Virus record (IMG/VR): IMGVR_UViG_2663762839_000012
Strand: one strand, 5' to 3'
DNA length: 7,388 nt
Origin: a virus
Taxonomy: Duplodnaviria > Heunggongvirae > Uroviricota > Caudoviricetes
In this document: one piece after another, positions 3,235 to 3,504 of the stretch
How the letters are laid out: the number at the start of each line of letters is the position of its first letter
Position numbering within the stretch: the stretch's first letter is position 1
The notes under the pieces: generated by a model
Told to the model about the DNA's origin: nothing
The model's database searches: none
The model's input: only the letters and a program-made list of their open reading frames with translations
Program-made: the position numbers and the translations under genes

Positions 3235-3504
3235 ATGTCAGAAATAAAATCGCTGGTCACTGCTGAAGCAGTGAAGGAAGTCCTGCGCTCTGAAGAAGTC
3301 AGAAGCGCACTGAAACAGCAACTTCGGCAGAACCTTGAGGCGCGTCTTGATGCAGAAGTGGATGCCATTCTGGATGAACTGCTGGGCGCACCGACTGTTC
3401 CGGAGCCGGAAGGCATTGCGGATGACAGTGCTGTTTCAGATGGCGTCGGGTCTCAGCCTGATGGTAGCAGTGAGCCTCAGCCTGACGGCGAAATGATGAT
3501 GTAA
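3235..3504 (+). CDS. Hypothetical acidic protein (89 aa) with a low-complexity acidic C-terminal tail; origin unknown
   Basis: ATG at 3235 is the first start after an in-frame stop at 3214-3216; stop TAA at 3502-3504. Codon usage looks coding-like (ctg, gaa, gcg bias). Predicted helical, charged N-terminal half and a C-terminal SQPDG...PQPDG near-repeat. No obvious Shine-Dalgarno sequence, and I do not recognise the family. Confidence 0.4.
   Translation: MSEIKSLVTAEAVKEVLRSEEVRSALKQQLRQNLEARLDAEVDAILDELLGAPTVPEPEGIADDSAVSDGVGSQPDGSSEPQPDGEMMM

Follow-up and report, generated by a model that had tools for sequence, protein, structure and literature searches.

The open reading frame at positions 3235..3504 (+ strand, ATG start) of the window, the whole 7,388-nucleotide stretch of virus record IMGVR_UViG_2663762839_000012 analysed here, is a full-length, unmutated copy of DUF826 (PF05696/phrog_311), a common uncharacterized prophage gene family. 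It has very probably been stranded next to aceB by two successive illegitimate-recombination events, and it is most likely a silent relic. Its 89-residue product scores 126.9 bits (E=3.3e-37) against PF05696, for which the Pfam gathering cut-off is 25 bits, with residues 1-73 on model positions 1-73 of 75, and it matches PHROG 311, a family in the category 'unknown function', from end to end (protein 1-89 on profile 1-85 of 85, E=1.7e-37). The exact protein is on record on 787 contigs (1,431 index blocks), invariably within a lambdoid late region, RefSeq labels the 89-aa form 'DUF826 domain-containing protein', and the DNA of the frame is that of 24 fetched prophage loci, letter for letter. 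In start, length and C-terminal MMM it conforms to the consensus of the family, both profile models begin at its M1, which is near-invariant across the family (90% or more of 26 sequences), and it has all the columns that are invariant across these 26 sequences. The core residues are K14, V22, L26-K27-Q28, R31, E35, L38-D39, E41-V42-D43 and I45-L46; T9, V13, K14, K27, V42 and G51 are kept in relatives down to 34% identity. The sequence-only reading had rightly placed an 89-residue frame here, divergent from aceB, but had called it an orphan, a description that these matches overturn; the frame belongs to an already-known kind and is ordinary in itself. The 933W protein AAD25448.1 (ST933Wp43) and RefSeq WP_032179377.1 are members of the same family. 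With WP_032179377-type copies the window gene shares an identical protein sequence, its length, the N-terminal helical core, the acidic tail, the C-terminal MMM and a conserved downstream spacer; unlike them, it stands without nanS-p, DUF1378, a Shine-Dalgarno element, a late promoter and a pinholin gene, and abuts a chromosomal promoter.

The native context of the gene was surveyed in 91 loci from assemblies and IMG/VR. In intact lambdoid loci the gene order is nanS-p (sialate O-acetylesterase), DUF1378, DUF826, an S21-type pinholin gene (PF04971), optionally ydfR/DUF1327, an SAR-type lysozyme gene and Rz/Rz1. DUF1378 encodes 60 residues, with a hydrophobic helix at the N-terminus and a tail that is basic; in 90 of the 91 loci its end lies 25-40 nt upstream of the DUF826 start, and the pinholin start lies 74-76 nt past the DUF826 stop in 90/90 intact loci. 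A conserved leader, CGAGAAAAT(A/C)CC, precedes the DUF826 start in intact copies and holds a conserved weak GAG Shine-Dalgarno element (anti-SD pairing of -3.0 kcal/mol). In Stx phages, DUF826 and DUF1378 frames have been reported between nanS-p and S, in a region downstream of Q and stx (PMC10462455), and this position places the nanS-p/DUF1378/DUF826 region in the Q-antiterminated late operon. About 31 Mu-like loci (for example, L097 1094-3746; L106-L138) have gin, a nanS-like esterase gene, DUF1378 and DUF826, then com and a methylase gene, with no holin, and their DUF826 is a 42%-identical relative. Since the trio occurs in Mu-like phages without a holin, nanS-p, DUF1378 and DUF826 move as a cassette independent of the lysis genes; judging by gene order, they form a three-gene cargo module common to unrelated phage backbones. 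The Mu-like occurrence of this cassette was found in the present work and is not reported in the literature searched. The cassette of Stx and other lambdoid prophages is the origin of the window gene, yet in the window only its last gene is left. No DUF1378 lies 25-40 nt before the frame, the aceB promoter and aceB lying upstream of 3228 instead, and no pinholin follows 74-76 nt past it, although the spacer is kept.

The absence of DUF1378 and nanS-p upstream is the work of the left junction, which three-way alignment and BLAST end points place at 3228..3230, where the aceB upstream region gives way to the prophage. The window agrees with the chromosome (metA-aceB intergenic region) as far as 3230 and with the prophage from 3228 onwards, so the earlier placement of the frame at a chromosome-phage junction was sound. 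The crossover lies in AAA, within flanking imperfect homology of 9/12. What is kept of the native leader is AAATACC (3228-3234) only, that is, 4-7 nt of DUF826's own leader, and the junction cost the gene its weak Shine-Dalgarno element, DUF1378, nanS-p and the late promoter.

On its other side the gene ends in a second microhomology junction, and the native phage DNA island between the two measures 354 bp (3228-3581). The right junction is a 6-bp microhomology, GGGTAT (3576-3581), which overlaps the AT of the first pinholin start codon. Here a 756-bp deletion, which begins at the first of the two start codons of the dual-start pinholin (MYQMEK...) and reaches lysozyme codon 47/48, has removed the pinholin, ydfR and endolysin codons 1-47, including the N-terminal hydrophobic segment, E35 and D44. 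Of the native DUF826-pinholin spacer, 74-76 nt long when the phage is intact, about 71-77 nt are kept (3505..3581, + strand). This spacer was considered as the site of a terminator or regulatory RNA, an idea that was rejected: its hairpins are no stabler than shuffles (z = -0.23), and a scan found no terminator. Lysozyme-derived sequence begins at 3582, 78 nt past the stop codon of the frame, much as the sequence-only reading had it in setting the frame just before a truncated lysozyme. It comprises the 3' two-thirds of an SAR-type lysozyme gene, from codon 48 to the stop (3582..3972, +), in which the longest frame is 3610-3972 with a GTG start and the match to PF00959 covers model positions 27-125 only. 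Neither of the two versions of the truncated lysozyme has an exact protein on record.

The same 756-bp deletion is present in an independent contig, IMGVR_UViG_2663762839_000013 (L026/L140), with 99.8% identity over window positions 3228-3791, and this contig keeps nanS-p and DUF1378 directly upstream of DUF826. It therefore shows what stood upstream of DUF826 before the aceB fusion, and establishes the deletion as real and as older than that fusion. The right junction is absent from 5,426 complete E. coli genomes, and its pattern gave no matches in genome and metagenome contigs and one in viral contigs. It had been suggested earlier that the frame was created by the same deletion that truncated the lysozyme. 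The phage origin of the gene, and a context made by deletion or rearrangement, both stand, but the two events are not the same one, since IMGVR_UViG_2663762839_000013 has the lysozyme truncation alone.

These observations suggest the following course of events. In an intact phage DUF826 is the third gene of the nanS-p, DUF1378, DUF826 cassette in the Q-antiterminated late operon. Its product would be a small cytoplasmic protein in which two conserved helices form the N-terminal domain; a disordered acidic linker follows, and a short conserved hydrophobic motif (MMM, TML, ATML) makes up the C-terminus. An older, microhomology-mediated deletion of 756 bp would have run from the pinholin start codon to endolysin codon 47/48, and a later deletion or rearrangement, also by microhomology, would have fused the aceB promoter to DUF826 at a point 4-7 nt before the DUF826 ATG. 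DUF826 thereby lost its late promoter, its weak Shine-Dalgarno element and both cassette partners. From the sequence we infer that the gene is most likely silent in this strain, in both transcription and translation. The best anti-SD duplex in the 20 nt upstream of the frame is +2.2 kcal/mol, in line with the earlier remark that there was no clear ribosome-binding site, and a consensus scan found no promoter-like site for the frame. The sole promoter-like element on the + strand is TAAAAT (5/6) at 3214-3219, with a -35 of only 3/6.

This element is the starting point for a different view, namely that the stranded gene is still expressed, either by read-through antisense to aceBA or from a divergent promoter that happens to exist in the AT-rich DNA of the aceB promoter region, and that it retains a stand-alone function in this host. 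TAAAAT stands about 15 nt before the ATG, and together with the very short A/U-rich leader it could allow low-level, nearly leaderless expression. The frame is intact and identical to functional alleles, its lack of any inactivating mutation being also what retained function would look like, and the N-domain-only relatives without DUF1378 and nanS-p (L105) indicate that some family members work outside the cassette. We nevertheless consider continued expression unlikely. The -35 is poor, the standard scan found no promoter, the conserved Shine-Dalgarno element is gone, and RNA polymerase and IclR at the aceB promoter would occupy the same DNA. The identity to other copies is equally well explained by a recent event: as a silent relic, the frame would still look coding so soon after the event, with DNA identical to that of functional copies.

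A more radical doubt concerns the junction itself, which might be an assembly or sequencing chimera, the real genome having a normal metA-aceB region and a separate prophage. None of 5,426 complete E. coli genomes contains the left-junction sequence, nor do the GTDB species representatives or JGI metagenome contigs, and it is known from one assembly alone, that of the window. The same aceB protein is on many short contigs, and the late regions of prophages, being repeated in several copies, are frequent break points in assemblies. On the other hand, the exact homology at the junction is only 3 nt (9/12 imperfect), as is usual in illegitimate recombination; being much shorter than an assembler k-mer, it argues against a k-mer mis-join. 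The neighbouring internal deletion, of the same microhomology style, is independently confirmed in another contig, and both sides are otherwise clean, three E. coli genomes matching the aceBA side at 99.9% identity. For the phage side, which is a mosaic, the matches reach at most 92-94% identity over 75-83%, and no close one runs its full length. Taken with these points, a chimera is decidedly improbable.

Whether the frame is a whole gene has also to be considered, as DUF826 entries of 109-148 aa are common in databases. These carry an N-terminal extension, as in the 148-aa AAD25448.1 of 933W, and phrog_8301, a profile 139 positions long, matches the frame at 59-139. The window frame might accordingly be the C-terminal fragment of a longer protein of 134-148 aa, its true N-terminus having been deleted. 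We give this very little credence. The extensions run over the DUF1378 3' end in a different frame, have no fixed start or length and are conserved far less than the core, whereas the near-invariant M1, at which both profile models begin, has the conserved GAG Shine-Dalgarno element at the right distance upstream, and it is the 89-aa form that RefSeq annotates. The DUF826 frame is open for 30-60 codons upstream, through the DUF1378 3' end (L001 3908-4007 and homologues; P0004, P0030, P0152, P0182); in the window this extension is closed by TAA at 3214-3216. By the frames that they read, the 134-148-aa entries are N-terminally over-extended calls. The suggestions that the frame was a fragment of a longer gene, or the N-terminus of a longer protein, thus both fall: its start, length and MMM are those of the consensus and of 24 prophage copies with identical DNA, and it is not the N-terminus of entries that are over-extended through DUF1378. 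A rare frameshifted DUF1378-DUF826 fusion call is on record (P0083). A programmed frameshift between the two genes, suggested by the open upstream frame, was set aside; it would need a +1 shift, and there is no good slippery site.

At 90% identity a word-indexed search gave 108 DUF826 clusters, nearly all from E. coli or Shigella, and an exhaustive profile search of 1.84 billion representatives gave only 53 at 50% identity, which makes the family real, narrow and phage-borne. A lineage-specific orphan, or a small protein born de novo at the junction, is hardly conceivable against these numbers, the existing Pfam and PHROG families and the identical copies in hundreds of prophages, and has nothing in its favour beyond a first impression formed without searches.

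The protein consists of an N-terminal helical domain (residues 1-51) and an acidic, Pro/Glu/Asp-rich disordered tail (residues 52-86), followed by the hydrophobic C-terminal MMM. AlphaFold2, run with an 18-sequence alignment, predicts helices at residues 10-17 and 20-49, with a block-mean pLDDT of 92-98 over residues 21-50 and below 50 over residues 56-80. The tail (52-89) has 9 D+E and 0 K+R and ends in EMMM; the whole protein has a pI of 4.05, a net charge of -13.5 and a GRAVY of -0.41, with no hydrophobic segment. The helical N-terminal half and acidic disordered C-terminus described from the sequence alone are thus recovered, as is the near-repeat in the tail. The latter consists of two 14-nt stretches on the + strand, 3451-3464 (TCTCAGCCTGATGG) and 3475-3488 (CCTCAGCCTGACGG), 12/14 identical with a 24-nt period, which encode SQPDG and PQPDG. 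Other alleles carry different QPE/QPD repeats and repeat numbers, and one (P0007) lacks exactly one 8-aa tail unit, which marks the repeat as a family feature rather than chance; by its composition it is part of a variable QP[DE]-rich linker. Over 24 distinct DNA alleles, pN/pS is 0.13 in codons 1-51 and 0.59 in the tail, and 19 of the 28 variable sites in codons 1-51 are third codon positions. The N-terminal domain of the family is under purifying selection. A hydrophobic C-terminal end (MMM, MML, TML or ATML) persists in relatives at 37-44% identity.

Some relatives, of 60 residues, have the N-terminal helical domain only and no acidic tail (L105 4001-4183). In L105, another lambdoid contig, the gene sits between Rz/Rz1 and the small terminase gene Nu1, with no DUF1378 or nanS-p nearby, and in Fels-1 a partial match lies at the same place, in an unannotated region (L098 3001-3087).

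In E. coli SSB, a disordered acidic linker leads to a short C-terminal motif that is hydrophobic. DUF826 resembles it in general architecture, its structured N-domain being joined by a low-complexity acidic linker, variable in length, to a conserved short hydrophobic end, although no sequence or fold similarity between the two was detected. The analogy suggests a tethered peptide motif that would bind a partner, and is offered as a lead, not as a claim of membership.

The function of the family was approached from several sides. Foldseek gave no matches against the PDB, the best PDB sequence-profile match (E=0.21) was meaningless, and NCBIfam returned only noise for the DUF826 protein. There were no PADLOC-DB anti-phage defence families at E<=1, no match to a lysis protein (holin, antiholin, endolysin or spanin) in Pfam, the PHROG lysis category, NCBIfam, PDB sequences or Foldseek-PDB, and no sequence or fold support for DNA binding. 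The label 'head completion protein' on some recent phage records was unsupported by any profile used and was therefore rejected. No function for DUF826, DUF1378, PF05696, L0106 or 933Wp43 was found in the literature searched, where a single paper mentions the domains.

The best-supported guess is a partnership of DUF826 with DUF1378 and NanS-p, for which the synteny in two phage backbones, the opposite charge and the fixed spacing argue; even so, it is put forward tentatively. The acidic DUF826 would then have as its partners NanS-p and DUF1378, a membrane protein with one membrane pass and a basic tail, and would not be a core lysis factor. More specifically, and more doubtfully, DUF826 and DUF1378 might be a two-protein membrane module serving NanS-p, for example, in its release or localization independently of the phage lysis genes. 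In such a module the acidic DUF826 may bind the basic cytoplasmic tail of the holin-like DUF1378 through its linker and C-terminal motif. The co-movement of the trio in lambdoid and Mu-like phages, the fixed spacing of about 38 nt and the purifying selection on the N-terminal domain leave room for such a module. A role for DUF826 in pinholin timing is less likely, given the Mu-like cassette without a holin.

To the right of the truncated lysozyme gene, the late region continues with Rz (i-spanin; 4454..4927, +; PF03245, E=7e-50), the embedded Rz1 (o-spanin lipoprotein; 4680-4865; PF06085, E=1.5e-19), which complete what is left of the lysis cassette, the terminase small subunit gene Nu1 (6574..7119, +; PF07471, E=4e-101) and the start of gpA (from about 7094; PF05876). 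The presence of Nu1 and the gpA start implies that the prophage continues rightwards. About 480 nt (3973-4453) separate the lysozyme stop from Rz, and the overlapping frames there, 4096-4311 (71 aa) and 4236-4457 (73 aa), have no Pfam match; the former has a hydrophobic C-terminal stretch, and L105 has a near-identical 60-aa frame in the corresponding position. The stretch from the lysis genes to Nu1 also holds a lipoprotein-like phage frame with a TonB C-terminal domain (5505-5846, +; PF03544, E=1.4e-14) and a convergent DUF3950 (YlcI/YnfO-type) gene (5978-6178, -), both of which occur in some intact relatives as well.

DLP12 and Qin in E. coli K-12 are cryptic lambdoid prophages with decayed lysis cassettes. 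The window is like them in that its late region has been eroded by deletions, with the holin and endolysin inactivated and neighbouring small frames intact. Unlike in DLP12 and Qin, both breakpoints are IS-free microhomology joins, one of which fuses phage DNA into the promoter of aceBAK, a core metabolic operon. The window is thus a dated example of prophage erosion, in which the older of two IS-free joins removed the lethal pinholin and the start of the endolysin.

The chromosomal side of the fusion carries aceA (about 185-1489, -) and aceB (1519-3120, -; start codon 3120-3118, product starting MTEQ). An exact look-up of the aceB protein gave only normal metA-aceB contexts. Window positions 1-184, the aceA-aceK intergenic region, give many matches per genome (a median of 16 places per genome for the 1-3227 query), consistent with REP-type repeats. 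Between the ATG of aceB and that of the frame lie 114 bp (3121-3234); the earlier observation of a short gap is right, though its figure of 115 bp is not. This gap was also said to be a divergent control region shared by the two genes. All of it save the last 4-7 nt is aceB leader and core promoter (3121..3227, -), and the DUF826 start codon sits on the aceB -35/operator area, so the two genes share no divergent control region, and the frame has no control DNA of its own.

Counted from the transcription start, published footprints put IclR box II at -52..-19 and IclR box I at -125..-99 (PMC2724298), and the IclR consensus is TGGAAATNATTTCCA (PMC8222616); the aceB promoter positions that follow refer to the ATG and to these footprint coordinates. 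In aceB-sense coordinates the IclR palindrome TGGAAATTGTTTTTG spans -121..-107, its right half being at about 3227-3233 of the window, and the break falls within it, 107-110 nt ahead of the aceB ATG. Phage DNA has taken the place of box I, the left half-site of box II and an IHF-consensus-like site (TATCAACAAGTTA at -154..-142), all aceBAK promoter DNA upstream of about -30 being deleted. The candidate -10 and -35 hexamers of aceB on the - strand are TTAAAT (3211-3216), TAGTCT (3202-3207) and TTGATT (3224-3229); the combination TTGATT-16-TAGTCT is kept, and both candidate core promoters survive. The aceB anti-SD pairing is -8.4 kcal/mol. Where the wild type has TGGAAA there is now CTGACA, 5/6 of TTGACA, which is the reverse complement of DUF826 codons 1-2. 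The aceBAK core promoter thus appears to have been kept or recreated after the fusion, and aceBAK may be IclR- and IHF-independent in this strain, with the first two codons of DUF826 supplying a CTGACA -35 element.

The frame itself matters little, as a database-identical copy of a common prophage gene that is probably silent here. The nanS-p/DUF1378/DUF826 cassette from which it came provides a concrete, testable context for two uncharacterized DUF families that are abundant in Shiga-toxin phages. Of greater interest is what its stranding did to aceBAK, whose regulatory DNA was lost: with the upstream DNA of aceBAK gone, regulation of the glyoxylate shunt in this strain is likely to be altered.
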